DNA of 59,352 bases, counting the filler, from Dimargaris cristalligena (lineage: Eukaryota), in NCBI GenBank assembly GCA_003614675.1. It is 4 parts of 4 records of this genome, joined end to end, with 100 filler letters (N's around TTAATTAATTAA, not from the genome) between each part and the next. Parts side by side here need not be neighbours in the genome. Positions count along the whole stretch, not along the records: positions 44,602 to 59,352 come from ML002938.1; 3 more parts are not named here. One strand, given 5' to 3'. Position numbers and translations under genes: made by a program. The notes below the pieces were generated by a model. That model was not told the origin of the DNA and did no database searches. It saw only the letters and a list, made by a program, of their open reading frames with translations. Positions 8,078 to 59,352 of the stretch are shown in pieces (position 1 is the stretch's first letter; each line of letters opens with the position of its first letter).

Positions 8078-8199
8078 CTATCTACTATTGATCCACCAAG
8101 AGCCCGAGTAGGTAGAGCCCTATCAGCTATAGTACTGTGGGAACCCTTAACTGACATTTGCTACTCAATAGGTAAAAGTGAGATGAATAGTGACAGTTG

Positions 8200-24642: not shown

Positions 24643-27600
24643 ATGACCAAGCCCAGTGATCGACCCGGCATCTCCGGCCTTTACCAAGCGGCTTACGCCA
24701 GCCTGTTTAAAAAATACCCCGAGGTCCAACAAGGTAACCCCAGCCTCCTGATTAATATTTAGAGGGGGGCTACTCAGCGGTGTGGCGAGTTCCCTGTTAA
24801 CGGCCCACTATGTCCATTTTCCCAATAAATCCTGATCACTTGATACCTGTATATTCCCTTAAACCCCATTATACCAACCCCCTATAGAGCGCATCATCGA
24901 GATTTTGGAGGATGTCAGTATGGATGAGGCCGATGCTGAAGCCACGTTGGACCAGATGCGTCAACGGCGGAAGCCTACCTTGGAACCCATTGTAATCATG
25001 GATGACAGCGGAAATGACACCGACGGCCCTGTTAAGTTAAAATCCAACCAACCCCATCCATTAGACAAAGCCAGCGAGTCAGATGCCGAGAGTTCCGAGC
25101 CGCCTTCCAAAGTTGTAAGTATGGGCCCAATTTTGGTGATTCGGGGGAGCCAGTTGTAATCTATGTAACTAAAGTGTAGCATCGGAGTCAGGTTGGTCTA
25201 TTCCCACAAGTCTGTAATCCGTGGATTTACCCACTGTATCATCAGGTACTGATTATGTCACAATCGGATCGGTCAGCCAACTACCCTCTGCTCCAATCGC
25301 CAGGCCTTTAACTTTAATTTGAAATATTATACTTCCGAATTTTATAGCGTACCCAGCGCCGACGTCTAGTGCCTAAAAAGGAGTTGCCCGATAGTTTGAG
25401 CGATATTCCTGACTCCGACACCGATGTCAGCGGCAGCCTCTCCCGGGGCCGGTCCGTTGCGGACAAGCGCGCTGCCCGAACCAAATCCGAAACCAAGGTG
25501 AAATCGGCCCTACCCCCAACTAAAGGTAGGTCAATAGGTTCATCCCTGGTTAATATTATACCCATTTCAGGGGACCCACTCGTTCTCTTTGAAAATACCC
25601 CCCCTCCATAATAACACTATCGTCTTACAACATCTACCTACCTACCTGTCCACCTATAACCACCCTAGTCAATCGCCCCCGTCAGATAAAATCACAAGGC
25701 TATGTGCCGGAATCCAACGAAGTCCCAGAAGACGAAAACCTTGAAGTCGTCGGGGAAGACCCATCGGATAAGCCCGGCGGTGACCTCCCCTGTCGTATAT
25801 TGGATAATTTTATTTTTTACGATTTGGCCAACAGGAATCTCCCCATCTCCATGGACGAAATCGGTCAGGAGGGCTTTGACATCACGGCCTCCGGAGATGT
25901 GGAGCCAATATACAACGACGGAGTACATCCCGACGACGAAAACGATGATGATGACGACGACGACGACGATGGCGAGTTGGGTGCCGGGGGAAGCTCGGAT
26001 GGTCGATCGCCCGGACCTTCGGATTCCGGCTTATCGGTCATGGCCCCGAAATCAAAAAAGACCGGGGGAAAACTGTCCTCCCGCCAGCTCAGTAAACAAC
26101 CCCAGGAATCCAAAAAATCTCGCAGCCCCAAGCAGCGTATCCGGCTAAGCGCCATCTTTTACTACCAGGAGCAGTACCTAGATTCAGGCTTGAGGTAAAT
26201 AATCAACCGATTTTTATAAATAATCCTCCAACTTTGCCATACATTAATAGTCAGGGTTGGGTAAGCCCGTATCGGTCTGTTGCGTACTTTCTTAAAAGAA
26301 GACGTCCGTACCAGTCTGTCTAGTATTAATGTTAGAGTATATTGCTGATCTTCTGTTGTCATTCCCGGATCTAGTGCCATCTGGTTACGCACAACCTTTG
26401 CCTGGTACAAGCTGTGTCGCCCGCATCCTCAATACGAAGGCATCTACACATCAATCGTCCAGCCGATCCGTATGGCCAACTTGGTCATTGCCTGGGCCCT
26501 CAATTGCCCGCAGGACGACTACAAAGCGTTCGTTGCCGCCTTGCCCCAGGTATCATTGCGGGGAGTCACCCAACCGGGCTGTTCTAATTTCGGGGGCGGT
26601 AAAATATCCGGGGAGGGCGATCACGATGGCCCCGAGTCCAACCGAACTTATTTATCTCGCTACGACTACCGCCACACCTGCACCGAGCGCGTTCTGTTGA
26701 ACCAGATCGATTTCGTCTGCTCCGAGGTCGAGGCCTGGTGCGAACAATCCAATGATTTTGAAATTATACAAACCCCCATTCTGCAGGAGATCTTCAAGCG
26801 GCGCTTCTCGGAGAAGATTAAACCGACCCGTCAGGGGGGACGTCAACGCAACGAATATGATGCCCATGATTCCTACCGACCGTCCGAAGAGTCGGCTACT
26901 CGCCAGGTCAGCCGGGTGCAGCGTGCGCCCAAATCTAAGAAAGGCCTCCCCGAAAACGGGGCAACCGTTACGCCCCACATTAATAACATCGCCAAGGGGT
27001 TGTTCAAGAAGAATCTGGTGGCCATCAAGACTAACCACCCTGATCTGCCGGCTTTGGTATTGAATGCGTCCGAAACCACCGTGGCCCAATTGGACCCTGA
27101 GTTGAAGGTCGCCGCTGGTAATGCGGCCGAGGCCTCTGTAGTGGACGACGAGATGGATCCAGATGGTCCCGCGGATATGGTCATCACTGCCGATGCTCCA
27201 CACGCCGGCTTTTTCATGAATAATCCGGTGGACCTCCAATTTAAGGACCCTATGTCCGACACTCATGGATTACGTGGCTCCCTGGCCCGTAAATACTATC
27301 GGGAATTGGTGGCCGCTTTCCCCAGCCCCTCCACCAGCCCCGCTTCCGCTCAGTTGTCGAAAGACCCTCTGGGGGGGATCGAGTCTGATTCCGACTGCGA
27401 TTCGGGTTCCGACGCGGCGGGTCAGTTGCCCAAGGCATTCCGTCGCCGAGTTAGTTTGCAGAACGACTCGGACCATCAGCCAACGGTGCAGCAAACTGTA
27501 CGTATCCACGATTGTGTTTACGTGTCGGCTCTCCCCGAATTGCCCGATACTAAAAGCCGGGGTCGGAATAACCAGCGGCAACTAGCCCCGTCCTCCCTCA

Positions 27601-29639
27601 GGAATGACCACCCCAAGATTGTCCGGGTAACCCATATGTATTACGATACCTACAAGCAGCAGTACAACATGCATGGTCGGTTGTTGGAATACGGACGAGA
27701 CACGGTCTTGGAAGAGGTGGCCAGTCCCCACGAACTCTTCTTGACCGACGAATGCCATACCTTCAACTTTAAGACGGATTTCCGCGGCTTGTGCTCCGTC
27801 CATTATTGTGCGCCCGAGGAAACGGGCAAGTCGCTCATGGCCAAATTTGGCATCACCACCGGATTCTTTTACCGTTTCTGGCATGACCCTCAAACAGGTG
27901 CCTACGAAGATGCGGAACGCCACACGGTGCCGGTGGACCAGTGGCCTACTACGTCGGGTTACTGCCCCGCCTGTGCTAAGCGCCAGTATCTGCAGTCCAC
28001 GGAAAAGGCCCGGTGGATCATCAGGGACCTTCCTCATTCGGCCGGCACTATGGAGAAGACTCCCATGCCCTGCCTTACCTACAAGGAGATAGATTACCAT
28101 TTGGGCGACTTCGTGTACATTATCCCTAATGTACGCGGGGTTCCCTACCGTATCGGACAGATTGTGGCCTTTAGTCCCCATAATATCTACCAACGACCGC
28201 CAACATCGATAGCGCCACTTAAACCCAAGTCCCCCATCAAGATTAATTACTTAAGTGATTCTGACAGCGACAGCGACCTTAAAGTCATCATTGAGCCATC
28301 CATTCTGATGGCCACCATCTCTTCACCGAAGCCACTGTTTGCGCAGGTGAAGTACGCATTGCCCCACTTACCCAACGACCAGCTGGATCCCGCTAACAAA
28401 GCAATTCCCCGCCACGTTTGTATCCGGGAGTATATCCGGATGGATGATGTGCCCATTCACCAGCTGCCCGTGTCGGACCGGACCTTTGTCACGGTGGACC
28501 CGAGCGCTCTGCGGACCAAAAAACCCATGCTGGCTTCCCGCTCGAACTATGCCCAGACGCTAGACGGTACCCCCGAACAGTCCCGGGTGGGTATCTCCTC
28601 GGGTTCAACGGCCGAGGGGGACTCACTTACCCCCAAGGCCAGTCCAGGCAATGGGTCGCCGGCCAACGCCCTTTTGCGGTTCCCCATCAAGGACAGTCGC
28701 CATCTTTTCGCCACCTCCAAATACACCAATATTGAACCGTCGCGGTTGGAGGGCAAGTGCTGGGTCCAACACATTTCCCATATTGACGACCTGGAAGCCT
28801 ACAAAGACGACGATACCAATGCCTTCTATGTCGAATTTGAAAATCAGCGCTCCGCCACCGCCTACGACCCCGCCGCTATACCCACTGGTTTGCGCTTTAG
28901 TCGCCTACAGCCCGACCAACTGACCACCTGTGTGTCTTGTCAGCACACCCGCGCGGTTCGTATCCAATCCCGGCGCCAGCTGCTGGCGACCGCCGCCCAG
29001 GCTATGCAAGCTCCGGTCCCCCAGTATACGCCGCAGACTCACACCAAGAATTTGCTCCGGGGACTCCAGGACGGCCAGATCATTCCGCACACCATTAATA
29101 AGGCCAAACCCCTCATTGCGCTAGATATTTTCAGTGGCTGTGGTGGATTGACCGCGGGCATGGAGGCCAGTGGGATAGTAGAGACGAAGTACGCCATTGA
29201 GTTTATGCCTAGTGCCGCCCTCACCTTCGAGCGCAATTACCCCGGTGCCACGGTGTATAACCAATGTGCCAACCTCCTGTTGGCCCGAGCCATTGGGCAA
29301 CATATGGACGGCCGCGAACTTGCCCCTGAGCAGGACTTTTTAGGGCGCCGTCTGCCCGACATGCCCGCACCGGGCCAAGTGGACTTTATCTACTGCGGTC
29401 CCCCCTGCCAGGGGTTCAGCGGTATCAACCGATTCCCTAAAGCAGATGACATCAAGAACACCCTCGTTACCACGTCGTTGAGCTACGTGGACTTCTATCG
29501 GCCGCGCTACTTCCTACTGGAAAACGTCTACGGTATGGTGCGTTTCCGTCTAGGTGGTACCCAGGACAGTTCCGCCAAGATTAAGGATGGCATTAAAATG
29601 GGGGTCCTCAAATTCATTATTCGGGCCCTTACGTCCATG
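24643..29639 (+). CDS. DNMT1: DNMT1/Masc2-type DNA (cytosine-5)-methyltransferase, 3' end lost in gap; exons 24643-24733, 24888-25114, 25348-25525, 25669-26194, 26375->29639
   Basis: RFTS/RFD-like region (RILDNFIFYD...IRLSAIF...SAIWLRTTFAWYKL). Two BAH-like domains (IHDCVYV...HELFLTDEC; YHLGDFVYI...PYRIGQI). MTase motif I LDIFSGCGG, motif IV GPPCQGFS, motif VI LLENV. All four GT-AG introns keep the frame. Confidence 0.93.
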
Positions 29640-44501: not shown

Positions 44502-44601
44502 NNNNNNNNNNNNNNNNNNNNNNNNNNNNNNNNNNNNNNNNNNNNTTAATTAATTAANNNNNNNNNNNNNNNNNNNNNNNNNNNNNNNNNNNNNNNNNNN
44601 N
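44502..44601. other. Assembly gap spacer
   Basis: N run with TTAATTAATTAA. Confidence 0.97.
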
Positions 44602-45072
44602 TGTTCGGAGTTGATATTTCTTGTAACCGTAAAACTGTGCTTATATGAATGGTGTGTCTTAACTTTGTTGGAAATACTAAAGGAATATTGATAAACAGGT
44701 TCATTTTAAGTGATTAGAATAAATGGGCACAGGGTAACTAAATACACCAACGTAGTTGGACTGATACAGAAGGGAATAATAGACCCGTCGGTACATATTT
44801 TTCAACACATTAGGGAATTATTATTGAATTTCTACCACTTTTGCGGGCATACTTGATGTGCTGTTGTGATAAAAGGAATTTGGCTTAGGAGTGATAGATG
44901 GGATCGGTTTAGCCAGGCTTTATAATGAAAATTGCGTTGGATGAGGTAAATACTACTGGTTAAAAAGGAGCTTCTGGCCTATTTTCCTATACACGCTGTC
45001 TAAAATATTATACGCTTTGGTTGAATTCCACCCATATGCGTCCTGTAGAACCCACCCTTGATGTCCAATATT

Positions 45073-48000
45073 CTAATCTCGGTTATTTCGGTTGATCATT
45101 GTGTTCACTTCTATAGGGAGTTGGGGTAACAGTTGGTGTTTTAATGTCAGGTTAGAGTTATATGGGGTATCTGTGGTTGCCTCTTGACAGTTAGTCCTAG
45201 AATCTGAAAGGCTGTCTAGGGTTGGTGGAGTTATAAATCCAACTTTTACCATATACGCCAAATAAAGGCCAATCAGACTAGAAATAGGTGGGCAATCTAT
45301 ACCCCCAGTATGGCAGATGACCTGGGTATGACTAGTATCTAGGATGGGGAGTCGAGTGTTTTTGGGCATATCATCCTGAGTAAATTGTAGTACAGGGTAG
45401 AGGGCATTGTCAGTTGACTTGTCTGTGGCCTCCTTTATATAGACACACCAAAGAGAGTATGGTATTGAAACTATGCTGAATCCATAAAGGCGGAGTTGGT
45501 CAAACATATCATTATAACTAAACCGGGAGGGTGATTCAATATGAAATGTTCCTTGGTCCAAGGCCTGTGGCTGAGCAACTACCTGGACTACGAACTCAGC
45601 AATATAATCCACTGGGCACATGTTGATAGCATTATCTAGGACAGGTGCTTTACCCAGCTGGATACATCCCTTGACCAGGCGCCATTGAAAATCATCAGAA
45701 TTGATTACCCCTGTTTTACTTGACCCTACGACAAATCCAGGTCGAATAATGGTGCAGGGATAGCCACGGGCCCGGGCCTCAAGTATAAGCTTATCGGCTA
45801 CCCACTTACTCTGGTCATAGCCACTGGGGAGATCATAGCGACTGCCTTCCAAGTCATCTGATTCTAGTACACCAGTTCCTATCTTGGCTTGGGCCAGGCT
45901 GGGAGTGGTACCCATATGGGAGTCAGATACTAGAGATGGGCCTTCAAATAATGACACAATATCTTCGGGCCTGGTCAATTGTATATAGTGGCTACTATTG
46001 AACACCGAAATAGATGAAACAAAGTGAAGTGGTTTAACATGGTCAGAGGTAGCCAGTTCAATAGTCGCTAGGGTACCCAATACATTGGAAGACCGGAATT
46101 TGCTATAGGGATACATCCAATAGACTAGTGCCCCATTATGGATGATAGCATCTACACCCCGTGCTAGCGACTGCCATTCAGCCAAAGAAATTCCTAGACG
46201 TGGTTGGGCTAGGTCTCCTACAACCACACGGACCCGTTGACTACCATAGCCAATTTTACAGTCAGGGTAAGTGCTAGTTTCAGAGGTCGTGATGTCCCAC
46301 TGGGTTTGCCATAGCAAACTATTAATACAGCTTGACTTAATTCGATCAAAGGCATGCTCCGGAGACTGGGCGCGTACCAGGCAAATTACAGTAGCCGTTG
46401 GGAAGTGCATTAGCAGGTGAGCTAGGATAAAGGCCCCCAGGAAGCCCGTGGCCCCAGTCAGGAAGAATATGGGAGCTTCCCCAGACCGGATTCGCACAGG
46501 AAAGACAAATGGAGTATCACTATTGTTGAACTGTATAGTGGACAATGGGGGCGGAAGTTGGTCAATTAGAGTAGCAAAGTCATTTGAGTATTCAGTGCTT
46601 GGATCAGGTGACGATTGGACTGGAGGATGTTCAGAGGAAACTGGGCGAGTCACAGTATTGTCAATAGCTGAAGGTTTAGATACGATATTTGATGTAGCTT
46701 GGGCAAACTGATCCACTGCTGCGGCCATACTATAAACAGTGGGATGCTGGAATACCAAGCTAACTGGAATATCAATTCCAAATCTCTTGCGAACCTGAAT
46801 ACCTAGCCGAGTGGCTAAAATTGAATGGCCTCCCAATTCGAAGAAGTTGGTATGTAAGGGAATCATGGAATCTAAGCCAAGGGTTTGCTGCCAAATATTA
46901 TTAAGGGTATTCTGTGTAGGACTATACTCACTTAGTGGGTCAGTGGCTGCTGACACACTGGTATTGTCTCTAGAAACTGAGGTATACTGCTGGCTTATCA
47001 TGGACTTTAAGGCATCCTTATAGTAAGGAAGGGCAGCTTTATCTACCTTCCCATTTGTTGATAGCGGGAGTTCGGGTAGTGGTACAAACACACTAGGGAT
47101 ACTGTAACTGGGAAGCTGCTTTTTTAAGAGTCCTCGGAGATCGGAAATAAGGCAAGTATTTCTGTGGTAATGCCTTTGATCAATGTCAGTTGATTTTGTT
47201 TGATTTACATTAGCCTGTGGTACAATATATGATACTATGATCTTATCATCATTGTCATCCTTGCGGACCACAGTCACATTTGCTTGGATTGATGGGAATT
47301 GGGCGATGTAATAATCTATTTCATCCAACTCAATCCGGAATCCCCGAATCTTTACCTGGTTATCCATTCGCCCCAAATATTCTACTTCACCATTTGGTAA
47401 CCAGCGGCCAAAGTCACCTGTGGCATACAGTGTACCCTTTCCTGTAAAAGGGTTCTTGGGAAATTTAGCTTGATTAAGATCAGGCCGATTAATATAGCCT
47501 GGACTAACACCAATTCCACCAATATATATTTCACCCACAGTCCCAATGGGGACCGGCTGCATATAAGAGTTTAGGATATAGCACTGGTAATTGGGAATAG
47601 GGCCACCAATAGTGATTGGACCAGTAGAAACTACTTGGGAGTAATGGCTGACAATAGTAGTCTCAGTTGGACCGTACCAATTCCAAACTGTAGTCACAGC
47701 TAACCAACTATCAGCTAATTTACGGCTGAGAGGTTCACCTATCAAATATATGGATTTCACATTCAAATAGTCTGAGGGGCAAAGTTGGCTGAGAACAGAT
47801 GGGACAAAACAAGACATGTCCACTTGACTGAGTGTTTTTGCCAAGTCATCATTAGGGAATACTACTGTGGACCCATAGCAAGCTGGCATTAAGGCATTGG
47901 TAAAAAATACATCAAAACTGGGGGAGACACCCACCATAACTCGGGTGCCTGCTTGTTGAAAGTCATGGAAAACAGGGTTGTTGAGGTGATAATTGATGTT

Positions 48001-51000
48001 TTCATGTGTAATCATAACACCCTTGGGAAGCCCAGTTGACCCAGATGTAAAGATAATATAGGCCAGGTCGTCAGGTGTATTTTGATGAATGGTATAGTCA
48101 TAATTGGTGACTTCATAAGTTTGCAATAGTTCTGACAGAACCAGGGCACCAGGCCACATGTTAGGGGTGATGGTGGCGTTGAGGACCCATTGGCATGAAG
48201 CAGCTTCAATAATATATTGCTGGCGCTGTTGTGGTAATTTGGAATCCATGGGTACATATACAGCCCCAATATACCATATTGCCAGCATTGCCACTAGTGT
48301 GTTGGGGTGGTTAGTAACAATGACACCAAGCTTGTCACTGGGCTGGACATATCTCTTCTTTAGGGCTGCTGCAACCCTGTAAATACACTCACTTAGGTAC
48401 TGATAAGTCCAGGTTTGGCCTGAAAATTCAGTGGCAATAGCAGTAGGGTGCATCTTAGCAGCCTCGTAGAATAGTTCCAAGGCCCCATGAGGTAACTTTA
48501 CTATAGGCTCATCAGGTCCAGGGTTTCCTAGGGAAAAGTCCTCAAGTAAAATACTTAATTCCTCAGGACAAACAATGGAAGCAGTTGGCCATTGCTGACC
48601 TGGACTAATACAGGCCTGTATATAATGCATAAAGTTTTTCAATATACACTCAGCTATTGATTGTTCAAAAACATCTGGGTTATAGTGCAATTTGCACCAT
48701 GGTGAAAATATATCAGTTTGGACTATTAGCTCAATATCATAGGCAAACACTGTTTTGGGTTTGGCAGGATAATGGTACTGAAACATTTCAGAATTAGCAT
48801 TGCCAAGTATGTTTGGGTTGATAGAAAGGTGAATTCTAGATAGGCCTGAGATCTGATTAACTGTGGAAAAACCTAAGAGTTGGCCTAATCTAGTGGTACA
48901 CGTCATGCATTGTTTCAATGTTTGGGTAATCTGATTTTGTAGTTCCTTAGCTAATTGGCTGATAGTCGTGGGCCAAGTACCCCCTACTTGAACTGGTACA
49001 GTTGAGAGAGAATGTAGGTTTAACCCAGACTTATTGATATTTGATTGGCCAGATAAATCACTAAAATCTACAATGAGCTCATCCTGGCCTGTTATATGAT
49101 GAATGAAGGTGAAAAACATTGCTAACCACATTTCACTGGGTAAGACTGATCCAATAATGGCCATCTCATATACTGAGGTAACTAAGGATGTGAGAAGATC
49201 AGCTTTGACCATGCTGCATTGTAGACTTGGTAAAGGAGGGTGAAGTCTATCCATATATAAGGCCAACTTTGTAGGGGCAGCTTTAAGAAGTGATAACCAA
49301 TACTTTAGATCCAGACTAGAGGGTTCTTGGTATTCAATACTGTATCTGGCAGGTACAATTTGGGTATTGTCTGATTCAATAGTAGATAAACCTTGAATGA
49401 GTTCATGAAAAATATTTTCAAAAAAAACAGTATTACCAGCAATCTCATGTACATGTAGAAATACATATGATTGTATGCTATTAGCAGAAGGGTCTGAACA
49501 CTGGTATAGTTTAGCCTGAATAAGTACCCCCTGTTCAAGGTCAAAATGAATATCTTCTGGACCAAAGTTCTCAAAATCCATCTTAAAATGACCTAGGCTC
49601 TGGTACTCTTGTACATTAATATGGATAATTGGTAGTATGTGACAGGTCAATACACCATTTGTTAATTTAAACTGGCACCGCAGGGCTTCATAGGTGGCAA
49701 CTATATGATTGATGGTTTTCTGGACAGTTGTTAACTGAATTGTGGTTATTGAAGAAATCATACAGCAGTGATAGAAACTAACTGCAGAGTGGAGTAGATG
49801 GCTAAGGGACCAAACTCTTTGTTGATAGTCATTAGCTGGCTGACTACAAATAAAAGGGAATGTTAAGGAGTTGGATATTCTATCATAGGTATTGTTACTG
49901 GTAACTGTGACTTGATTATGGCTAAGTTGATTAGAAACTAAGTTGGCTAAAGGTTGCAGTTTGTTAACTGTGATTAAATCACTTAATATTATTCTAATAT
50001 AATATTTCTGATAGACATAGTATTGGAGGTGTTCTAATTGGGCTAGGGAAAATCCCTCAGTAGATTGTAGAGGGGTAGTTGCAGATAAACTGGTAGTTGG
50101 TTGGTGGAATAAGTACAGCTCATTAATAACTACTGCTAACCACCACTCTAATTCTGACAGCATTGAGTATAGTGGGAGTGTAGTAAGATAGGCTAGGGCA
50201 AAATAGTTAGTATTGCAACTAAGTTGGTTTGTATAATCAGCTACATGAGGGAACCCCACAGTAGAAATAATACTGCTAGGAATAAGCACCCGAGGAGTAG
50301 TAGGAGGAGCTATTTTGGCCTGCAGTTGGGCCAAATCTTCCTTAGGGGTATGGTCAACTAATACTACTAATTGTCCATTGGGTAATATTAGGACCTGGGG
50401 ATGAATAGCCCCAGCTTTAAGGAGTGCCTGTTCTAGTATACCAAGATGCACTTGCTGGCCTTTGAGATTCACCCTCTGGGAACTAGGGCCTAGTATGAGA
50501 ATTTGGTTATCTGAATTATAGGAACCAAGGCCAAGATCCCTAACCTTTTGAGGCTGAATAAAATTACCAACATCAGTAAATGCTATGTAGCCAAGAACCC
50601 CTGGAGGGCAGGGATATCCCTGGTAATCTAAAACTGCTAGTGGGTTACCCCCTAAGGAAGTATCTAAAATAGGTAGAGTAAAAGTTGCAAGTTGATTACT
50701 AGTTATAAAGCAGAATCCATCAAATATAGATCCATTATAAACTAGGTAGAGGGAGGACTGGTTAGCTAGAGGATGGATACTAGATGGTAATAGTTTGGCT
50801 AGATTTACCAGTACTATATGGTGATTATATTGAGTTTCTTGGGTGAGTTTAATGGAGGAGGTATCATGGTAGTGTGTTTGATTATCATAAGGTGGAGTAT
50901 ACACCCCTGTAGGTTTAGCAGTTACATTAAATAATAGACACAAAAGAATAAGCCAAATATTTTCCTGGCTACTAATCTCTAATGAATAATCAAAGGAACA

Positions 51001-54000
51001 CTCAAGTCTACTATTGAAATATGACTTGGCTTGGGTAAGGGCATGTGTTATTTGAGTACAGGTAATCGAAGTTATAGCAGGACCAGTTAAGCCCCAGTCA
51101 GAAATATATTGCAAGCTAATATTAGAGTTACTGTACTGGGAACTGTGAAGTTGGATATATTCTAAATTAGTGCTAGGAATATTAGTATTCCAGGATGGTA
51201 TTTGGATCACATTGGTATTTTGTGGGAAGTATTCTGAGTATGTATTTGAAAAGGAGGTATGGAGCCATACAGCCTGGGGTTCAAAAGTTACTAGAGATAT
51301 ACCCATTTGTTCAAGAGATTGGGTATATGGATGAATTGTCAGCTGAGCATTCAATTTGATAGCAGCCACTAAGCAGATGGATAGCTGGCTATAGTCTTTA
51401 ATAAAAGCCAGTATAGTTGGAGATAATCTTGAAGTATAATTAATAGTGGAGTGCACTAGGGAATCAGCTAGGTTATTAAGCTTACTGACAGATAGTATCT
51501 GTTCATCAGATTGGAGGACCAATTGGTCTGGATTCTTATTTATATTACATTCCCAGACTTCATGTAGTGATTGGGATACCATGACAGAAGAAGGATTGTA
51601 GATAGGCTGTTTGAGGTTACTTATTAATGGATATGATAGTGGTATAGTAAGGGTAAACTGATTAATATGGTTTTGTGGATCACATATAAGTATTTTTTCG
51701 AGGATTAACTGGGTCATTTCCACAATCTGAGTTATAGAGGTTCCTGAGTAGATTTCTGTACTGTAAGATACTTTAACTTGTATGGAGGAGGACTGGTCCA
51801 CAAAATTAATAGTCAATGGATATTCAATATATTCGTGAATATTAATATCTGAAATGATCAGTTCATGTAATTGGTCATTTACTAGACTAGGGAAATTCTC
51901 AAAGCCTAGGAGTGTGTGGAATAGAGGTCCAGGCTGGCCTAATCCACTCCATTGGACAATATCAGTAAACTGGGAATGCTCAAATGGAATCATATCCACC
52001 TGGTCCTTATGAAGAGATTGCAGCCATGGCTCAAGGAGAGAATTGTTTAGAAGAATCCGGCATGGTATTGTATTAGTACAGGGCCCAATAACTTGGTCCA
52101 TACCAGGGATATTTAAACTTCGACCAGATATAATTACACCAAAAGTCACATCATCCTGGTTAAGTAGTTGACCTAAGACTAAGGCATAAGCAGCCCGGAA
52201 TAGGGTTGCAATTGAGATTCCCAGACTTTGAGTGATTTGGAGTAATTGGGCTTTTGAAATTTTGAGTGGTGTTGAATAGGATGCATAGCCTGGTAAACCA
52301 ATATAGTCTGGGTATATTAATGGGGCTGGTGTAACTGTTATATTATATAGGTAGTTGGTCCAAAATATCTGTGCCAAAGTGGGATCTGACTGGCATATAT
52401 ATTTAACAACAGCTGGAAAACTAGTATGGGGTAATGATCTGGCTAATCCTTGGTGATGATAGGTTACCATCCACTGTTGAAGGAGCAAGGGTAATGACCA
52501 TCCATCTATTAATGAGTGGTGAATTGTGATAATAATATTATGGATCTGGCTATTAGGTGTGGGAAACACAAAGTTACGGACCATATGTTCCTGGAGGGTG
52601 AAGCCCTGTTGCCGGTTCTTAATAAAAAATGCCTCAATGGAATTAAGAGGCTGGTCAGATATAGTCCAGGCTGTAGGTAAAGTGGTAAGCACCACCTGGA
52701 GGAATCCTTGGGATAAAGTATTGGGTGATTCAATGAACAGTGTACGTAGGGAAGAGTGCTGGTTGACTACAGAAGCCCAGGCATGGATTAGTTGATCTGG
52801 GTCCAACTGGCCAGTTAGTTTGATTGCCATTTGGACAAGGTAGGTTGATGGATCCAAAGAAAGGTTCATAAGAAGGCCACCCTGGACTGCAATACATGGT
52901 AGTATATCCTCAACCTGGGCCAGGGGAATTCCTCTTTGGTGTATTTGGGCAAGGATTTTCTGAAACCCAGTACCAGAAAGAGATATATGTGGGAAGTCAT
53001 ATTTGGTAAGTAGAGGTTCAGGGATCATATTTTCAGACTGTGTACCAAGGCTAGTAAGTTTGACCAAATTTTGATGCCACCTGGCCATGATTTTGACAAT
53101 AATATCCCTGTGGTAAACCTGGGGGTTATACTCCATAATTAACCGGAGACAGTCACCAACTATTGTAGGCATGGGATTGAGGTCAAAAACAATGTAGTCC
53201 TGGGGGGCAAAGTCATGTAGTCCAAAGTAATCAGTCCATTCAATAAAAAGTGGATCATTACTTTGGTGAGTGTTTGAGCTATTAAATTGTCCAAAGTAGT
53301 TGAACTGGACATCCATTCTCTCAGGCGTCCTAGCTATAAGTTTACGCTTCTCATCAGCTTGGACACCTGGCATATATTTGATTATTGAGTAGGGAAAACC
53401 TTTGGCTGGGATTCTCTGCAAGGCTTCCTTTGTACATTGCAATAGCTCCAAGAGTGACTGGTTTGGTGGAATCTGAAGCACTAAGGGATAGAGGGAGGTA
53501 AACCAACCTACAGTGCGAGTAATATCTTGATCTGCAGCCCAGGGTTCCCGACCATGACCCTCCATACAGAAGGATATCTGGTCAACCCCAATAGTAGTAG
53601 CGAAGGCCTGGGCAAATGTGGCCAGTAGTATGTCTTGGGGGGTAACTCGCCATTGGGGAGTGAGCTGGAAAAGGAGATTATTGGTGGCCTCATAATCAAA
53701 ATCTAAAGACACAGAGGGGCGGGCCACTTGATTCTCTCCAGTATAAATCTCGGGTGGAGGTAGCAGTGAATAAATGTTGGGAATTGGGTGACCTGTATCA
53801 ACCTGTAGAGGCCAAATATCTGCCAAGAGAGTATTGGAGTAGCTTGCCAGCTGGGTGGCCCAGGTTTGGAACGACATTGTCTTGGGTGGGAGGGGTTTGC
53901 TGAGTAACAATGTATTTAGATCTTCTGTAATTATCCTCCACGAAACCAAGTCCACCAGAATATGGTGAATAGTGAAGAAGAGTTGGGTACTGGGCGGTTT

Positions 54001-56940
54001 GGCCAGGTCATGGATAATGGCCACAGCAACTACCGGGCCAGTAGTTAGATTAAGACTTGACTGGACTTCTAGAATAAAGGCTGAGTAGTCATCGGCGCCC
54101 ACAGGCCTTTCTAATACCAGAAGGTCAGCACTTGTGGCCACTTCAGTAGGGATTAACTGTGTCCAACTCTGCCCAGTCTCACTGAGCTGGAATCTCGCCC
54201 GTAGAATATCATGGTGGTTAAGTAAGGCAACAAGAGCATCAGTGAGAGTTGAGTGGGACAGTGGGAAATGGGGGTTGACCTTAAATAAAAAGGATTGGTT
54301 GAAGTGACTATAATTCTTAAAAGGAAGATTGGTAAACCAATTCTGAATGGGGGTGAGGGCCACATCTCCTTTGGCTTGGACCTGATAGGCTAAGCCCGTA
54401 TCAGTTTTTGTGTTAGTTTCTTGCTGAAGATACTGGGCCTGTTGCTCTAGTTTAGGGTACTGGTAGACCAGTGGGACGGAAAACTGGTAACCCAGTTTTT
54501 GGTACTTCGATATAAGTAAAATAGCTGAGATGGAATCACCACCAAGTTTGAAGAAATGGTCATAAGTTCTAATTTTACTGATGTCCTTCTGCAGGATATG
54601 TGCCCAGGCCTGTCGGAGGCTACACTCAATACCTGATAATGGCTGCTCCTCTAAACCTGTTGTGGAGGGCTGGTTTAAAACGTGATCAATTTGTGGGAGA
54701 GCCTTGCGATCTAGTTTACCGTTGGCGGTTATTTGAAACTCTGGCACCAATATGATTATTTGAGGCACCATCTGCTTAGATAGGCGACTGGATAGGAAAT
54801 TCCGAATAGCGACTTGGTCTAGATCTGCTGGGCTGGCATATAAAACAAGGGTATCCCGAACTATTTTTGCCACACAATTTTTCAGACCGGTAAAGTTACC
54901 TGCCAGCTGCTCAATTTCCTCGAGCTCAATGCGAAACCCGCGTAGCTTAATTTGATTGTCGAAGCGGCCCAGGATTTCTATTTTTCCGTCGGAGAGCCAC
55001 CGAACACGATCACCGGTCCGGTAAACTTGACCGGGGCCATGCGGGTTATCAATGAATTTGGCTTGAGTTAATTCAGGTAGGTTCTGGTAACCACGGGCAA
55101 GACCTATTCCCCCTATGAGCAACTCGCCAGGGACACCTACCGGCACCAATTGAAGCTGGTCATCGACCACTAAATTGGTCACATTTTTAAGAGGCCGGCC
55201 GATTGAAATCTCATCGCCAGGATTGATTATAGTTATATTGCTAAATATAGTGATTTCTGTTGGTCCATATATGTTCACGAGGGTGCAGTGACTTGCCCAT
55301 TGATTGCATAATTCTGCTGTACAGGGTTCACCGCCAATAATAATTGTCTTTAGATTTTGAAAATCGGCAGGATTAAGACGGGAAAGAAATGAGGGGATAA
55401 AGTCTGCTGTATCGACGCTTTGTAAGGTCTCAATAATATTACCAGTTGGAATCACGACAATACCCCCAGCACTTAGTCCATACAGAACCTCCATTACCAT
55501 CCAATCAAAAGCAACCGACATCATTAAAAGTGATCGATGACTTTTACTGCAGGCATCCATTAACATGGGATTAGTAATGACATTGGTAAGACTTTGGTGC
55601 TCAATCATTACACCCTTGGGACGACCAGTAGTGCCGGATGTGTAAACAATATAGGCAAGGTCACGCCGTGCTGATCGATGGGGTTGGAAATCAGATGGGT
55701 CCGAGTTGGGTAATGATACAGTGAAAGGGTCCGCCATCAATACAGGAATATGAGACTGAGTTGGCATTTTACTAGCGGACGATTCAGTGACAAGCACTAA
55801 TTCCGCACCACTGTCTTCCAGGACAAACCGGATGCGATCGGCTGGGTACTCCGGGTCTATGGGCACATATGCTGCACCGGATTTGAGTACCGCAAGTAAG
55901 GCGACGATGTAGGCAAATGCCTTGGGAATGAGTAGGGCAATCCGTGTCTCGGGTTGGGCACCATATTGGCTAACAAGAACACGAGCAAGCTCGGAACTGC
56001 AATTGTCCAGCTGGCGGTAGGTCCATTCATTGTGGCCATGGGTGACGGCAATATTATGAGGCGCTTTTATAACCTGGTCGCTGAATATGCTGTGCACAGG
56101 CTGGTTCACGCACTGGATTGGGACATTCATGCGAGAAAAGGTCATTAGACGAGTTCTTTCTTGGTCACCGACCCAGGGGATATCACGGATGAGGATTGGG
56201 GGCCTATTGGAATCCTTCATGGTCCAGGCATGAGCCACTGCCCCCAAAACCGTATCAAATTGATTGGAGAACTCCTCTATAGCAGAGGCCCGGTAGGCAC
56301 TGTGGGAATATGTAAAATTCAGCGTGGCAGAGTCATCCGCCAAGCTAAATTCAATCAGCAGCCTGACTCCCACTATGGCCAAAAGGGTAGACTGATAGCC
56401 TTCGGAGTTGGTGACGGTGGAATAGATAGATCCGTCCGGGTTTTTGGTGGATGGCTGATTGGGGACAGTGGACAGACTACAACGTAGGATCACCTCAGGA
56501 GGCGGGGGTGATTCAGCAATGGCATTGGAAGGGTTTCCGCTTACGTTATTTAAATTGATTTTTGGCCCGTTAAATTTGTTGCAGGAGCTAATCAACGAAG
56601 TAACCTGGGCCTCGGGATCCACGTTAAACAACACCCAGACCAGCGGGGCTCCATCGGGGTATTTATCGTTGAGGAATCCAGTGGGGTAGCCAAACGCCAC
56701 CTCCGATTGATTGTAATACCGACTTAGCAGAATGGCCAGAGAAGCCATAACCACTTTGTTTATGCCAGATTCGGGGCTATGCTGAACGATCTCCGATGAA
56801 AGATGTTGCTGATAAGTCCCAATACCCTGCTGGACTCGGCTAGGTCTGCCTAAAGGCAACTTTACATTTGCGTGGGTTTCAGAAGGTAAATGGGAAACTG
56901 GGGCTACACCATCGGCGGAGAGGTGATAATATTGCGACAT
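45073..56940 (-). CDS. Intronless nonribosomal peptide synthetase (~3955 aa): partial C - A - T - E - C - (decayed A - decayed T) - degenerate C - A - T - R (thioester reductase)
   Basis: First ATG at 56940 (track start 57048 is TTG). A1: YTSGTTGRPKG, YGPTE, YRTGD, NGKLD. T1: LGGDSI (~54535). E: HHILVDLVSW, EGHGRE, RTVGWFT. C: HHSLIDGWS (~52510). Last A: FTSGSTGLPKG (~48040). T: LGGHSI (~46825). R: TGATGFLG (~46445) and YDQSK. Confidence 0.95.
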   Translation of the reverse strand: MSQYYHLSADGVAPVSHLPSETHANVKLPLGRPSRVQQGIGTYQQHLSSEIVQHSPESGINKVVMASLAILLSRYYNQSEVAFGYPTGFLNDKYPDGAPLVWVLFNVDPEAQVTSLISSCNKFNGPKINLNNVSGNPSNAIAESPPPPEVILRCSLSTVPNQPSTKNPDGSIYSTVTNSEGYQSTLLAIVGVRLLIEFSLADDSATLNFTYSHSAYRASAIEEFSNQFDTVLGAVAHAWTMKDSNRPPILIRDIPWVGDQERTRLMTFSRMNVPIQCVNQPVHSIFSDQVIKAPHNIAVTHGHNEWTYRQLDNCSSELARVLVSQYGAQPETRIALLIPKAFAYIVALLAVLKSGAAYVPIDPEYPADRIRFVLEDSGAELVLVTESSASKMPTQSHIPVLMADPFTVSLPNSDPSDFQPHRSARRDLAYIVYTSGTTGRPKGVMIEHQSLTNVITNPMLMDACSKSHRSLLMMSVAFDWMVMEVLYGLSAGGIVVIPTGNIIETLQSVDTADFIPSFLSRLNPADFQNLKTIIIGGEPCTAELCNQWASHCTLVNIYGPTEITIFSNITIINPGDEISIGRPLKNVTNLVVDDQLQLVPVGVPGELLIGGIGLARGYQNLPELTQAKFIDNPHGPGQVYRTGDRVRWLSDGKIEILGRFDNQIKLRGFRIELEEIEQLAGNFTGLKNCVAKIVRDTLVLYASPADLDQVAIRNFLSSRLSKQMVPQIIILVPEFQITANGKLDRKALPQIDHVLNQPSTTGLEEQPLSGIECSLRQAWAHILQKDISKIRTYDHFFKLGGDSISAILLISKYQKLGYQFSVPLVYQYPKLEQQAQYLQQETNTKTDTGLAYQVQAKGDVALTPIQNWFTNLPFKNYSHFNQSFLFKVNPHFPLSHSTLTDALVALLNHHDILRARFQLSETGQSWTQLIPTEVATSADLLVLERPVGADDYSAFILEVQSSLNLTTGPVVAVAIIHDLAKPPSTQLFFTIHHILVDLVSWRIITEDLNTLLLSKPLPPKTMSFQTWATQLASYSNTLLADIWPLQVDTGHPIPNIYSLLPPPEIYTGENQVARPSVSLDFDYEATNNLLFQLTPQWRVTPQDILLATFAQAFATTIGVDQISFCMEGHGREPWAADQDITRTVGWFTSLYPLVLQIPPNQSLLELLQCTKEALQRIPAKGFPYSIIKYMPGVQADEKRKLIARTPERMDVQFNYFGQFNSSNTHQSNDPLFIEWTDYFGLHDFAPQDYIVFDLNPMPTIVGDCLRLIMEYNPQVYHRDIIVKIMARWHQNLVKLTSLGTQSENMIPEPLLTKYDFPHISLSGTGFQKILAQIHQRGIPLAQVEDILPCIAVQGGLLMNLSLDPSTYLVQMAIKLTGQLDPDQLIHAWASVVNQHSSLRTLFIESPNTLSQGFLQVVLTTLPTAWTISDQPLNSIEAFFIKNRQQGFTLQEHMVRNFVFPTPNSQIHNIIITIHHSLIDGWSLPLLLQQWMVTYHHQGLARSLPHTSFPAVVKYICQSDPTLAQIFWTNYLYNITVTPAPLIYPDYIGLPGYASYSTPLKISKAQLLQITQSLGISIATLFRAAYALVLGQLLNQDDVTFGVIISGRSLNIPGMDQVIGPCTNTIPCRILLNNSLLEPWLQSLHKDQVDMIPFEHSQFTDIVQWSGLGQPGPLFHTLLGFENFPSLVNDQLHELIISDINIHEYIEYPLTINFVDQSSSIQVKVSYSTEIYSGTSITQIVEMTQLILEKILICDPQNHINQFTLTIPLSYPLISNLKQPIYNPSSVMVSQSLHEVWECNINKNPDQLVLQSDEQILSVSKLNNLADSLVHSTINYTSRLSPTILAFIKDYSQLSICLVAAIKLNAQLTIHPYTQSLEQMGISLVTFEPQAVWLHTSFSNTYSEYFPQNTNVIQIPSWNTNIPSTNLEYIQLHSSQYSNSNISLQYISDWGLTGPAITSITCTQITHALTQAKSYFNSRLECSFDYSLEISSQENIWLILLCLLFNVTAKPTGVYTPPYDNQTHYHDTSSIKLTQETQYNHHIVLVNLAKLLPSSIHPLANQSSLYLVYNGSIFDGFCFITSNQLATFTLPILDTSLGGNPLAVLDYQGYPCPPGVLGYIAFTDVGNFIQPQKVRDLGLGSYNSDNQILILGPSSQRVNLKGQQVHLGILEQALLKAGAIHPQVLILPNGQLVVLVDHTPKEDLAQLQAKIAPPTTPRVLIPSSIISTVGFPHVADYTNQLSCNTNYFALAYLTTLPLYSMLSELEWWLAVVINELYLFHQPTTSLSATTPLQSTEGFSLAQLEHLQYYVYQKYYIRIILSDLITVNKLQPLANLVSNQLSHNQVTVTSNNTYDRISNSLTFPFICSQPANDYQQRVWSLSHLLHSAVSFYHCCMISSITTIQLTTVQKTINHIVATYEALRCQFKLTNGVLTCHILPIIHINVQEYQSLGHFKMDFENFGPEDIHFDLEQGVLIQAKLYQCSDPSANSIQSYVFLHVHEIAGNTVFFENIFHELIQGLSTIESDNTQIVPARYSIEYQEPSSLDLKYWLSLLKAAPTKLALYMDRLHPPLPSLQCSMVKADLLTSLVTSVYEMAIIGSVLPSEMWLAMFFTFIHHITGQDELIVDFSDLSGQSNINKSGLNLHSLSTVPVQVGGTWPTTISQLAKELQNQITQTLKQCMTCTTRLGQLLGFSTVNQISGLSRIHLSINPNILGNANSEMFQYHYPAKPKTVFAYDIELIVQTDIFSPWCKLHYNPDVFEQSIAECILKNFMHYIQACISPGQQWPTASIVCPEELSILLEDFSLGNPGPDEPIVKLPHGALELFYEAAKMHPTAIATEFSGQTWTYQYLSECIYRVAAALKKRYVQPSDKLGVIVTNHPNTLVAMLAIWYIGAVYVPMDSKLPQQRQQYIIEAASCQWVLNATITPNMWPGALVLSELLQTYEVTNYDYTIHQNTPDDLAYIIFTSGSTGLPKGVMITHENINYHLNNPVFHDFQQAGTRVMVGVSPSFDVFFTNALMPACYGSTVVFPNDDLAKTLSQVDMSCFVPSVLSQLCPSDYLNVKSIYLIGEPLSRKLADSWLAVTTVWNWYGPTETTIVSHYSQVVSTGPITIGGPIPNYQCYILNSYMQPVPIGTVGEIYIGGIGVSPGYINRPDLNQAKFPKNPFTGKGTLYATGDFGRWLPNGEVEYLGRMDNQVKIRGFRIELDEIDYYIAQFPSIQANVTVVRKDDNDDKIIVSYIVPQANVNQTKSTDIDQRHYHRNTCLISDLRGLLKKQLPSYSIPSVFVPLPELPLSTNGKVDKAALPYYKDALKSMISQQYTSVSRDNTSVSAATDPLSEYSPTQNTLNNIWQQTLGLDSMIPLHTNFFELGGHSILATRLGIQVRKRFGIDIPVSLVFQHPTVYSMAAAVDQFAQATSNIVSKPSAIDNTVTRPVSSEHPPVQSSPDPSTEYSNDFATLIDQLPPPLSTIQFNNSDTPFVFPVRIRSGEAPIFFLTGATGFLGAFILAHLLMHFPTATVICLVRAQSPEHAFDRIKSSCINSLLWQTQWDITTSETSTYPDCKIGYGSQRVRVVVGDLAQPRLGISLAEWQSLARGVDAIIHNGALVYWMYPYSKFRSSNVLGTLATIELATSDHVKPLHFVSSISVFNSSHYIQLTRPEDIVSLFEGPSLVSDSHMGTTPSLAQAKIGTGVLESDDLEGSRYDLPSGYDQSKWVADKLILEARARGYPCTIIRPGFVVGSSKTGVINSDDFQWRLVKGCIQLGKAPVLDNAINMCPVDYIAEFVVQVVAQPQALDQGTFHIESPSRFSYNDMFDQLRLYGFSIVSIPYSLWCVYIKEATDKSTDNALYPVLQFTQDDMPKNTRLPILDTSHTQVICHTGGIDCPPISSLIGLYLAYMVKVGFITPPTLDSLSDSRTNCQEATTDTPYNSNLTLKHQLLPQLPIEVNTMINRNNRD

Positions 56941-58779
56941 GTTGGGTTGGGAAAGTGGTGTAGATCTACTATTCAAAAGAATCCCGGAGACTGGATTAGA
57001 CAGAATACGAATGGATATACCCGGTAGTAATTGTGTTACTGCGAACAAAACGGGATGGATAACTATGATTAGCTGTAACCCGCCGGCTCGACGTTTAGAC
57101 TGTTTTATACTGAATGGAAGGAAACGTCGGTTAGATTTTTAGGGGCAACAACGCCCTGTTAGACCCATTAGTCAACAAGGGTCCCTCTTCTATCGACTAT
57201 ACATTACCGCCGAAGGATGTATTAATCAAGATTCCCAGCTATTTGTGGCACGTAAACCGGGTTTCGGCCGGTATAATAAGTCATTGAAATATATGCGGAA
57301 TAATGATTAATTTTACATGTTTACTCCCGCTGCATCATCAAGTATCAAATTGCCAGTGAATACCTTTTAAAATAATTACACTATAATTTTTTAATTACTG
57401 TTCTGGAGAAATTAACATTGTTTTATTAGAAACTGACTGGTCAGCTTTAGTAATGCATACTTGAAGAACGTGCACCGACCGTACCCATCCAAAAAAGCCA
57501 TTTGTGTTCGTTAATAACCAAGTCTCTACCACATTTAATCCGTATCTGAATATAAACCGCCAATTTTAGACTGATCCAAACAAATCATTTAACCTACTTC
57601 GAATGGCATTATTAAAGTCGACTCACCTTTATAGCGGAGACTGCGATAGCATTTTGTAAAATACCTGACATTCAAAATCTACCATTTAGAAGCGAGCACC
57701 CGTTGAAGTGACCTCTTGTACACTGCACCCATTACCTGAAACGTCGTCCACTTTTGATTGCATGCCCCAGATTTACGCGACACTCCTTATATGATAATAT
57801 GGCTTATGATACCAGCGTTCATGGGGGCAATCAAGGTATCAAAACTTAGTTAATCACTTTCACCAACCATAATAGATTAAATTGGTCATCAAAATAATAT
57901 ATGTAAAGCCATGTTTCCCGGGTTTCCAAATGATTATACAACTCTACTAGCCCAATGTTAGACTAAACCCAACCCTTTATTGTATGTTTCTTTAACTATC
58001 AATATATGTACATATAGTGTAATTTATATTGAGCAATATCATTAATATGGCGGGCTTGGTCACCAATTTAAATAACCGGCCTAAGGCGTACACTAGGCCA
58101 GCACTCGCTACATTGTAATACCAGACAGATCCACCAGCGCTGACGGCCTTTTGATTCCAGACCTAATACTCTCCCCCCACTTTGTGGGAATAATCATGAT
58201 ATTAATAAAAGCCTACGATGGTATCGCTGTTAATCCAAACATTACTACCGCAGCAAGGGGTTACTTTCCTAGGACTGCTTGAGAGTAAACTATCCTATAC
58301 TTTACTACTTTTACCAGATCCCCAGATGTACTTTAGGTGGCGAGCCCTTTTGAAACATATTTGTGACAAATTAATGTCTCTTTATTTAGAGTGAATGCAC
58401 TATCACTAGAGTAAATTGACTTATTATCAGCCCCTATTATATAATGTTTTGATAAGTGGAAAATAATAAAAGTTTATATATATACATTAATAAACCCATG
58501 TGAAATGAGTGAAAACAACTGGATGACAGCAGGCATCTCGCAGTGGCCAGTTTTACAGCATATTCCAGTTCGACAGCCACATTCAGTGTGGGTGAAGTTT
58601 ATGGATAGTGTAAATTGATCAACTAGTGCCATTGGGCAGACCTGGACAATAATTTCCACAATGGGACATATTTTCAATGTGATCTTACTATGCAATAGTC
58701 CTCAGATGAAGTAGAGTTTTATTTATAGTGAATCTAAGGCAGGTAACCTTTTGGTCATAATTTGCCATCCACAGGGAAT

Positions 58780-58825
58780 ATATGGGTGAAGTTCAACCCA
58801 GCTGTATAGGGTAAAATCCATATAG
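58780..58825. mobile_element. MITE-like element, partial copy 3 (one terminus)
   Basis: atatgggtgaagttcaacccagctgtatag closely matches the left ends of copies 1 and 2. Confidence 0.55.
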
Positions 58826-59352
58826 GTAGGTCATCATATTCAGGTCATGTGACCTTTGGGGGATGGACATAACCTTCCCCCCCCCCTATATTATCCACCC
58901 ATCCATCACCACCAATATAAGCTAAGGAGACTTAGCCTATATTGTGATGGGGAGGGGGTACACCCAGATAGGGCAGGGGCAGTACTGGTACTCAATTGAG
59001 TATCAGCATAGTAGGTGGGGTTATATTTATGCTTATAATTGTACTAACCCTATAATACAATAATACGCCCTGTCCTTTTAAGCTCTGCCCTATTTGTTTT
59101 AACTAGCTCTTTAGCCAGCTGTTTTAAATAAAAAGAAAGGGCACTTAAAGGTGCTGCCAAATGGTAAAAAGGGAATGCCAATTGGTAAATGGGAGCCAGA
59201 GGCTTCTAAATTTGAATGGGAGTAGCCAACTGGCAAATGGGGGATAGAGATTCCCTTTTTTGCATGGTGAATGTAGTGAAAGGGAATAGGGCCCTAAGGC
59301 CCTGAAATTCGAATGGGGAATTGATATTGGCAAATGTGGGCCAATGGGAATC

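Follow-up and report, generated by a model that had tools for sequence, protein, structure and literature searches.

We analysed a window of 59,352 nucleotides from the mycoparasite Dimargaris cristalligena (order Dimargaritales; assembly GCA_003614675.1), in which a nonribosomal peptide synthetase (NRPS) gene has lost most of its CpG dinucleotides over a long stretch of an open coding sequence. The window consists of four contigs of this fungus placed end to end (pieces of 14770, 14769, 14762 and 14751 bp). Between the pieces lie three runs (14771-14870, 29640-29739 and 44502-44601), each made of 44 N, the string TTAATTAATTAA and another 44 N. Because this string produces a stop codon whichever of the six frames is read, the runs are linkers, and no linkage can be inferred across them. 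The pieces are nearly equal in length and grow shorter from first to last, as contigs ordered by size would. The NRPS stands alone on the fourth contig (44602..59352, 14751 bp, bounded by a linker). Its open reading frame (ORF; 45073-57048, minus strand) comprises 3991 codons, has no intron and is open from 57048 with no stop in frame. The five nearest proteins (P0002, P0184, P0185, P0186 and P0187) are all from D. cristalligena and are thus paralogs. Because they align from about amino acid (aa) 48-54 of the ORF, the ATG at 56940 (aa 37) is the likely start, which gives a coding sequence of 45073..56940 on the minus strand.

From Pfam matches and motif inspection, the domain order is A1-T1-E-C2-[dA-dT-dC]-A3-T3-R, where A, T, C and R stand for adenylation, carrier, condensation and reductase domains and d marks a degenerate one. 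Pfam finds AMP-binding (1e-138), Condensation (6e-120), PP-binding (3e-26) and NAD_binding_4 (2e-66); A, T and C domains with their core motifs are present together with a release domain, as in an NRPS. All domains lie on the minus strand. A1 (aa 290-790; 54679..56181) has a Pfam AMP-binding match at aa 324-654 and the core motifs A3, A7, A8 and A10, and its CpG content is close to normal. T1 (aa 800-880; 54409..54651) carries GGDS. An E-like condensation-family domain (aa 890-1340) and C2 (aa 1350-1800), together at 51649..54381, both have HHxxxD. At the 3' end of the gene, A3 (aa 2881-3360), T3 (with GGHS) and a terminal reductase of the NAD_binding_4 family (aa 3530-3819) occupy 45592..48408, again by Pfam and motifs. 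The catalytic motifs are unbroken in A1, T1, E, C2, A3 and T3.

Between C2 and A3 lies the degenerate module dA-dT-dC (aa 1801-2880; 48409..51648), where the CpG loss is deepest (observed/expected ratio, o/e, 0.03-0.1). It has no A-domain core motif and no Pfam match to AMP-binding or PP-binding, and aa 1800-2330 have no Pfam match of any family. In dC, VHE stands in place of HHxxxDG, and the Pfam score of this third condensation domain is 30.7 bits versus 161 for C2. The module is degenerate in every paralog that covers it; therefore the degeneracy is old, and the CpG loss is not its cause. At the degenerate carrier (about 50050-50080, minus strand; aa 2322-2345) the NRPS of the window reads EGFSL, whose Ser occupies the usual attachment site, and the paralogs read SKVPL, SRIPL, VGATL or SEATL, without that Ser. 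The paralogs also differ at the end of the protein: the NRPS of the window terminates in the reductase (45592-46461, minus strand), where P0002, P0185, P0186 and P0184 have further condensation or adenylation domains instead, so the release chemistry differs within the family. Two large protein searches, one of them with NRPS residues 1750-2750 as the query, returned no identical or near-identical protein record for this NRPS, and for this reason the locus appears to be unannotated.

A first-pass annotation, made from the sequence, had described CG as very rare in the interior of the gene, with GC, CA and TG common. Counting bears this out. In 49981-50300 there is exactly one CG (at 50291) versus 11 GC, 16 CA and 20 TG, and the CpG o/e is 0.03 in the 1-kb windows spanning 49001-51000. 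Over 47400-54500, we observed 42 CpG where 289 are expected (o/e 0.15), at a GC content of 0.41 and a GpC o/e of 0.88; in 1000 mononucleotide shuffles of this interval the mean was 289 CpG (standard deviation 14) and the minimum was 243. The loss is real and highly significant. The 5' part of the gene, where CG had been called frequent, has 100 CpG versus 131 expected at 54700-57000 (o/e 0.77), and the region upstream of the NRPS (57049..58377) is normal to high in CpG (o/e 1.06 over 57001-58000). The edge between the two regimes is fairly sharp: the number of CpG per 300 bp is 19 at 54801-55100, 7 at 54501-54800 and 2 at 54201-54500, which places it at about 54650-54800, in T1 and at the A1/T1 junction. 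The promoter and the first 2.4 kb or so of the NRPS are spared. The products of CpG decay are in excess, with a TpG o/e of 1.0-1.3 and a CpA o/e of 0.9-1.5 in the NRPS and a (CpA+TpG)/(ApC+GpT) ratio of 1.11-1.36 throughout it; the excess is lowest at 50-51.5 kb, where TpA goes up. The GC content at third codon positions (GC3) drops from 0.48 to 0.32 within the gene.

Is the loss tied to the CpG context, or does it follow from base composition? We considered third codon positions at which C or T leaves the residue unchanged and calculated C/(C+T) according to the next codon. In aa 37-800, C is found at 49/134 of such sites before a G-starting codon (0.37) and at 168/324 before other codons (0.52). 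In aa 801-3200, the corresponding values are 11/262 (0.04) and 528/1157 (0.46; Fisher p-value 2e-44). In the core, aa 1801-2800, C is absent before G-starting codons (0/93) and present at 199/497 sites before other codons (0.40); in aa 3201-3991, the two values are 11/103 (0.11) and 177/354 (0.50). Since C falls only modestly before non-G codons and steeply before G, the loss is tied to the CpG context, and neither base content nor a general shift of codon usage explains it. AT content alone, which the first-pass annotation had itself set against its claim, thus fails to account for the loss. The proposed transition from CpG to TpG/CpA is recognizable both in this context dependence and in the dinucleotide ratio given above.

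The same sites define the extent of the decay. In steps of 150 codons, C before G-starting codons is found at 48/132 sites over aa 1-750 and then at 4/12, 2/18 and 2/13; over aa 1201-2850 it is found at 2/165 (0/49 over aa 1201-1650, in E/C2) and over aa 2851-3990 at 15/161. The decayed stretch is therefore approximately 9.6 kb long (45073..54700): it begins at about 54700, at the A1/T1 junction, and ends with the stop codon at 45073. Roughly 90 CpGs are left in it. The interval 47400..54500 first assigned to it is indeed depleted, but it is too narrow. The raw CpG content recovers toward the 3' end mostly because selection kept CGN codons for Arg: there are 28 CGN codons in aa 3201-3991, and the core has 2 CGN and 11 AGR codons. 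The decay includes conserved domains: identity to the paralogs is 51-61% in E and C2, and A3-T3-R retains its motifs.

These data bear on an explanation without methylation, in which relaxed selection on the degenerate module is combined with AT-biased mutation or a shift of codon usage. The module is degenerate, GC3 falls from 0.48 to 0.32, and the share of C before non-G codons is 0.40 in the core, down from 0.52, as such an explanation would have it. However, the o/e already corrects for base content, GpC is normal, the effect at C before G (0/93) far exceeds that at other C sites, and the loss also affects E, C2, A3, T3 and R, which are conserved and bear motifs. We regard this explanation, already disfavoured, as very improbable.

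The loss of CpG has changed the protein as well. The annotation had called the interior poor in Arg and rich in Gln, His, Ile, Tyr and Asn, which is correct: each 200 aa contain 1-4 Arg in aa 1401-3200 and 6-12 in aa 1-800, and all five of the other residues are above their levels in the paralogs. The comparison with the paralogs is made within one genome. They have 2.6-6.9% Arg in the domains where the NRPS of the window has 0.9-3.3%, and in A1 the Arg content is 4.3-5.6% in all copies. Windows of 300 residues with less than 2% Arg number 15 out of 37 in the NRPS of the window and zero or one in the paralogs. Among 146 other retrieved NRPS proteins, none has a minimum Arg content below 1.3%.

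We also examined alignment columns in which most paralogs carry Arg. In A1, 20 of 27 such columns are still Arg, with two Gln and one His among the rest. T1-E-C2 retains Arg in 18 of 39 columns and shows 11 Gln and one His; A3-T3 retains it in 10 of 20, with one Gln, one Cys and one Tyr. In dA-dT-dC, only five of 27 columns are still Arg (four of them encoded by AGR), and six His, six Gln, four Tyr and two Cys are found. Taken over the decayed part, former Arg sites have become Gln or His 25 times and Cys or Trp three times, and none has become a stop. Decay of a CGN codon yields either CAN, which encodes Gln or His, or TGN, which encodes Cys, Trp or a stop. Neutral, strand-symmetric decay would use the two routes about equally, yet the ratio is 25 to 3, so the harsher outcomes appear to have been removed. 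It is possible that a strand bias of the mutation itself is the source of this ratio. At codon boundaries, the CpGs have been resolved through the silent C-to-T route, as judged from the codons that remain: a C stands before 7/276 of the kept G-starting codons in the decayed part, compared with 22/116 in A1. G-to-A replacements number 77/508 in the decayed part, hardly above the 22/189 of A1.

The reading frame itself has been preserved. As the annotation had noted, the interior has no stop codon: there are none in 2366 codons, whereas the other five frames contain 131-222, and selection was correctly credited with holding the frame open. For the full ORF, there are no stops in 3991 codons versus 202-347 in the other frames. 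The open frame and the bias of Arg changes toward Gln and His indicate that the NRPS is under purifying selection. A dead or dying gene in silent chromatin, with its frame open by chance, would agree with the lack of a matching protein record. It would be expected to carry roughly 3-8 TGA stops under neutrality (estimated from the loss of some 53 Arg, with CGA making up 10-29% of CGN codons), and it fits poorly with the open frame, the intact catalytic motifs in six domains, the strong NAD_binding_4 match and the 25 to 3 ratio at former Arg sites. This explanation was already disfavoured, and of all those considered here it seems to us the least credible.

An enzyme that could act on CpG is encoded in the same assembly, and it is of the DNMT1 type that the annotation had named. 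A gene for a DNMT1-type cytosine methyltransferase (25656..29639, plus strand) lies on the second contig, with RFD and BAH domains and the catalytic motifs I (FSGCGG), IV (PCQ) and VI (ENV). Its nearest relatives are from Dimargaris xerosporica and Dispira, at about 50% identity, and it aligns to residues 283-1307 of a relative of 1742 residues, ending at the contig end. The truncation is not a biological event, as the break coincides with the contig join. An in-frame gap between the ORFs 25593-26198 and 26349-29687 resembles an intron. CG had been described as frequent in the housekeeping genes; this holds for the DNMT1 gene (o/e 0.99) and for a cyclin gene (0.88), although both lie on contigs other than that of the NRPS and do not represent the same locus.

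CpG-poor DNA is found elsewhere in the window. The end of the NRPS contig is a high-copy repeat (58378..59352) that is CpG-poor from about 58700 (o/e 0.11). Its summed sequencing depth is 2558-76580 versus 25-2783 elsewhere, it occurs in many variant contigs, and loose ends are found at 58780-58783 in all four DNA runs. On the first contig, an AT-rich stretch without an ORF longer than 108 aa (8000..11000) has a CpG o/e of 0.03-0.16; CpG-free runs of 1184 and 835 bp lie within the 7000-11500 region, which may be an old mobile element. The CpG-poor repeat and this ORF-less stretch show that CpG decay is regular in some parts of the genome, also outside genes. Furthermore, a short dispersed repeat of about 100-144 bp occurs on three of the four contigs, at 7933-8076, 22350-22479, 44899-44994 and 58780-58808. 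The copy at 44899..44994, which is 71-73% alike to those at 7933-8076 and 22350-22479 (blastn), lies 80 bp downstream of the NRPS stop codon.

With a high-copy repeat 1.3 kb upstream of the gene and a dispersed one 80 bp downstream of its stop, methylation might have leaked or spread into the NRPS from its flanks, in the manner in which repeat-induced point mutation (RIP) leaks from repeats into adjacent genes. The shape of the profile speaks against this. The sequence nearest to the upstream repeat (54700-58377) has normal CpG. Depletion is strongest in the middle part of the gene, which is 4-5 kb away from both repeats, with no gradient from the ends. Since the parts nearest to the repeats are the least affected, spreading from them does not fit, and we consider it very unlikely.

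A different role for repeats was proposed in the first-pass annotation, namely that NRPS modules, being multicopy, are recognized as repeats and methylated. The family is in fact multicopy: we found at least five paralogous NRPS loci in D. cristalligena, and the accessible text of the paper on the genome of this species reports 27 NRPS genes in it, in two lineage-specific expansions and mostly alone on short contigs, within a family with repeated duplications (PMC6784888). At the level of nucleotides, the modules of the gene are hardly alike. A1 and A3 are 35% identical as protein, and their nucleotide match is a single 60-bp motif (80%), the only match inside the gene by blastn; E, C2, dA and dC have no nucleotide match elsewhere in the NRPS gene. 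The interior is also single-copy. In each of four DNA runs, one spanning contig accounts for all of the summed depth over 49522-51489 (25.3, 24.8, 275 and 270), and no second copy at least 90% alike was found over this interval in the four runs. The depth in runs X1 and X2 cannot be read as copy number: over 44602-58377 its highest and lowest values differ by as much as about 100-fold in X1 (9.6 to 2783) and by over tenfold in X2, compared with only about threefold in X3 and X5. A tblastn search with five NRPS proteins found no NRPS remnant in the window outside 45000-57100.

The proposal can nevertheless be put in a wider form, in which duplicated NRPS modules or whole genes were seen as repeats, as in methylation induced premeiotically (MIP) or RIP, became methylated, and decayed at CpG as maintenance outlasted their divergence. 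The multicopy family, with its at least five paralogous loci here and the 27 genes in the accessible text of PMC6784888, is in line with this, and so is the fairly sharp edge at the A1/T1 junction, as the edge of a duplicated segment might be. Moreover, a sister copy less than 90% alike would escape the depth comparison, and, as the NRPS of the window has no protein record, decayed sister copies could be unannotated too. It is possible that a sister copy is less than 90% alike or has since been lost, or that an ancient trigger was followed by faithful maintenance.

Against the repeat trigger stand, besides the lack of nucleotide similarity among modules and of a second copy at least 90% alike, several results from the paralogs. 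Identity to them is 55-59% in A1, 58-61% in E, 51-54% in C2 and about 30% in the degenerate module; A1 was spared despite partners as close as those of E and C2. We considered whether A1 was spared because a swap or gene conversion had recently renewed it, and rejected this, because A1 is as far from the paralogs as E and C2 are. Pairs of paralogs that are 63-74% identical as protein, and thus younger duplicates, show no erosion of Arg. The NRPS of the window is the most divergent of the group, so any trigger would be ancient, while CpG near zero at synonymous sites needs present or recent pressure. The (CpA+TpG)/(ApC+GpT) ratio of 1.11-1.36 does not agree with RIP either. The classical RIP index lies below about 1.03, with a high TpA/ApT. 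A repeat trigger as first stated is thus not supported, and in its wider form we think it unlikely.

The claim that methylation speeds divergence is not supported either; what shows in the protein is the erosion of Arg. Relative to the branch of P0186, that of the NRPS of the window is 1.77 times as long in A1, which was spared, versus 1.66 in E, 1.10 in C2, 1.84 in dA and 1.40 in A3. These ratios (1.10-1.84 for depleted domains) reveal no excess rate relative to A1, in a comparison that is crude, as the per-domain trees are unrooted and their topologies differ between domains. P0184 groups with P0185 and P0187 in A1 and stands apart in C2 and A3, which suggests domain exchange or gene conversion among the paralogs.

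We favour, as on balance probable, an explanation in which about 9.6 kb of the NRPS (45073-54700) has been under lasting CpG methylation, with deamination of 5-methylcytosine (5mC) eroding the CpGs and selection keeping the protein readable. The DNMT1-type enzyme of D. cristalligena would maintain heritable methylation on the body of the gene, and deamination of 5mC would, over a long time, press for transitions specifically at CpG all the way between the A1/T1 junction and the stop codon, with the promoter and the first 2.4 kb remaining outside. Purifying selection would then filter the outcomes: CpGs at codon boundaries would be lost by synonymous C-to-T change, CGN codons for Arg would be kept in the working domains, and at weakly constrained sites Arg would give way to Gln or His rather than to Cys, Trp or a stop. 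The depletion would be deepest in the middle because dA-dT-dC, degenerate across the family, tolerates such changes. Protein divergence among the copies is about 45%. At such an age, synonymous sites are expected to mirror the mutation regime of today, and we infer that the pressure is still acting or acted until recently.

What would direct the enzyme to this gene? One candidate for the targeting step, and for that step only, is methylation of gene bodies or of silent chromatin, in which a long, intronless and mostly silent gene of secondary metabolism would be methylated by default at a distance from its active or poised promoter, and repeats are irrelevant. The sparing of the promoter and the first 2.4 kb, the deepest loss in the middle (2/165) and the weaker loss at the 3' end (15/161) agree with it. 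A parallel exists outside the fungi: the accessible part of PMC12695648 describes four non-fungal species having both marks, in which 6-methyladenine (6mA) marks gene bodies at their 5' end and 5mC increases as 6mA declines. The DNMT1 gene, however, is undecayed at 2.4-4 kb from its start, among the four contigs examined. We hold this targeting to be a reasonable possibility, falling short of probable.

Several observations count against lasting methylation as we have described it. The involvement of methylation is deduced from sequence: a search for sequencing runs that contain this DNA gave five DNA runs and no bisulfite, long-read or RNA run, a blank that says nothing about expression. The DNMT1 gene is cut by the contig end, so that about 435 C-terminal residues, including the target-recognition part, lie outside the window. 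The body of that gene has no CpG loss up to 4 kb from its start (o/e 0.94-1.07), and therefore distance from the promoter alone is insufficient. C before non-G codons is somewhat lower in the core (0.40 versus 0.52), so part of the AT shift is not CpG-specific. Finally, at least 18 differences among the runs lie inside the ORF (10 non-synonymous and 8 synonymous), and only two of the 13 listed in the decayed part touch a CpG, with no clear CpG excess, in a set too small for a mutation spectrum.

If lasting methylation is the cause, its footprint has a further implication. CpG methylation may form a stable patch on a working, selected gene over evolutionary time, rewriting the amino acid make-up of the product; we offer this tentatively and with some doubt. 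The patch would resemble the gene-body methylation that fungi are said to lack, and the erosion of Arg to Gln or His would fall mostly in a scaffold module tolerant of it. Methylation in Cryptococcus, through DNMT5, is inherited by maintenance alone. It is tempting to hypothesize that a maintenance-only patch could be the relic of a duplication-triggered event during the NRPS expansion, outliving the traces of the repeat; such a relic is conceivable.

Decay of CpG by methylation is textbook knowledge, and in fungi it is known for transposons. In the NRPS its footprint is found on an intact, single-copy biosynthetic gene of 12 kb, with a sharp 5' edge and outcomes filtered by selection. If our explanation is true, the gene would be a clear example of a functional fungal gene whose body has carried cytosine methylation over the long term. 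It would also provide a natural measure of the mutational load that a coding sequence can absorb, one in which the synonymous escape routes are exhausted and the cost falls on Arg. The expanded NRPS family of Dimargaris, with its 27 reported genes, could then serve to ask whether a fungal DNMT1 is directed by duplication, by silence or by the length of a gene.

Other genes lie on the third contig. The first (29692-30971, minus strand) encodes an SH3 domain followed by a proline-rich tail; it runs into the linker and is cut by the contig end, as the DNMT1 gene is on the opposite side of that linker. For a Nob1-type ORF at 42324-43259 there exists a partial D. cristalligena protein record that is 100% identical.

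How does the NRPS compare with known systems? In the literature we found no methylation study of Dimargaritales, and the only paper found to contain both "Dimargaris" and "DNA methylation" concerns giant viruses. One close setting is the CpG decay of methylated transposons and repeats in basidiomycetes and Tuber, which the available portion of a review links to CpG methylation of the DNMT1/DNMT5 type. The CpG-specific loss, the TpG/CpA products, a DNMT1-type gene with an RFD, incomplete in the window, and CpG-poor repeats in the assembly are all shared with it. In contrast, the target here is an intact, single-copy and selected gene whose first 2.4 kb are spared. The NRPS also resembles plant and invertebrate gene-body methylation with its CpG-poor gene bodies, which is CpG-specific, spares the promoter-proximal part, is worst in the middle and leaves the coding function in place. 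Gene-body methylation in those organisms covers many constitutive genes, whereas the DNMT1 and cyclin genes are undepleted among the four contigs examined. Two reviews, as far as their accessible text goes, report that fungi have no canonical gene-body methylation.

Some fungi tie gene duplication to cytosine methylation, as in MIP (Ascobolus, Coprinopsis), or to C-to-T change, as in RIP (Neurospora). The expanded NRPS family of D. cristalligena offers a similar setting. Both processes require a duplicated sequence of several hundred bases at high identity; for the NRPS of the window, no present-day duplicate at least 90% alike was found, and no nucleotide similarity within the gene beyond the 60-bp match. 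Unlike in RIP, the signature is CpG and not CpA, and the index of CpA-to-TpA bias lies outside the RIP range. Fungal siderophore synthetases retain degenerate adenylation domains as spacers. As in these enzymes, the family preserves the frame of a module that lacks catalytic motifs; the differences are that degeneracy extends to the A, the T and the C domain of one module in the NRPS and that the expansion is specific to Dimargaris. A further comparison is with Rhizoctonia solani AG8, for which the accessible text of PMC4014442 describes CpG-biased hypermutation in genes and repeats alike and proposes that it could speed adaptation. CpG-to-TpG change in fungal coding regions is common to both. 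In AG8, as that text has it, the change appears as genome-wide heterozygosity between nuclei, whereas in the NRPS of D. cristalligena it is fixed and sharply bounded, within one gene.

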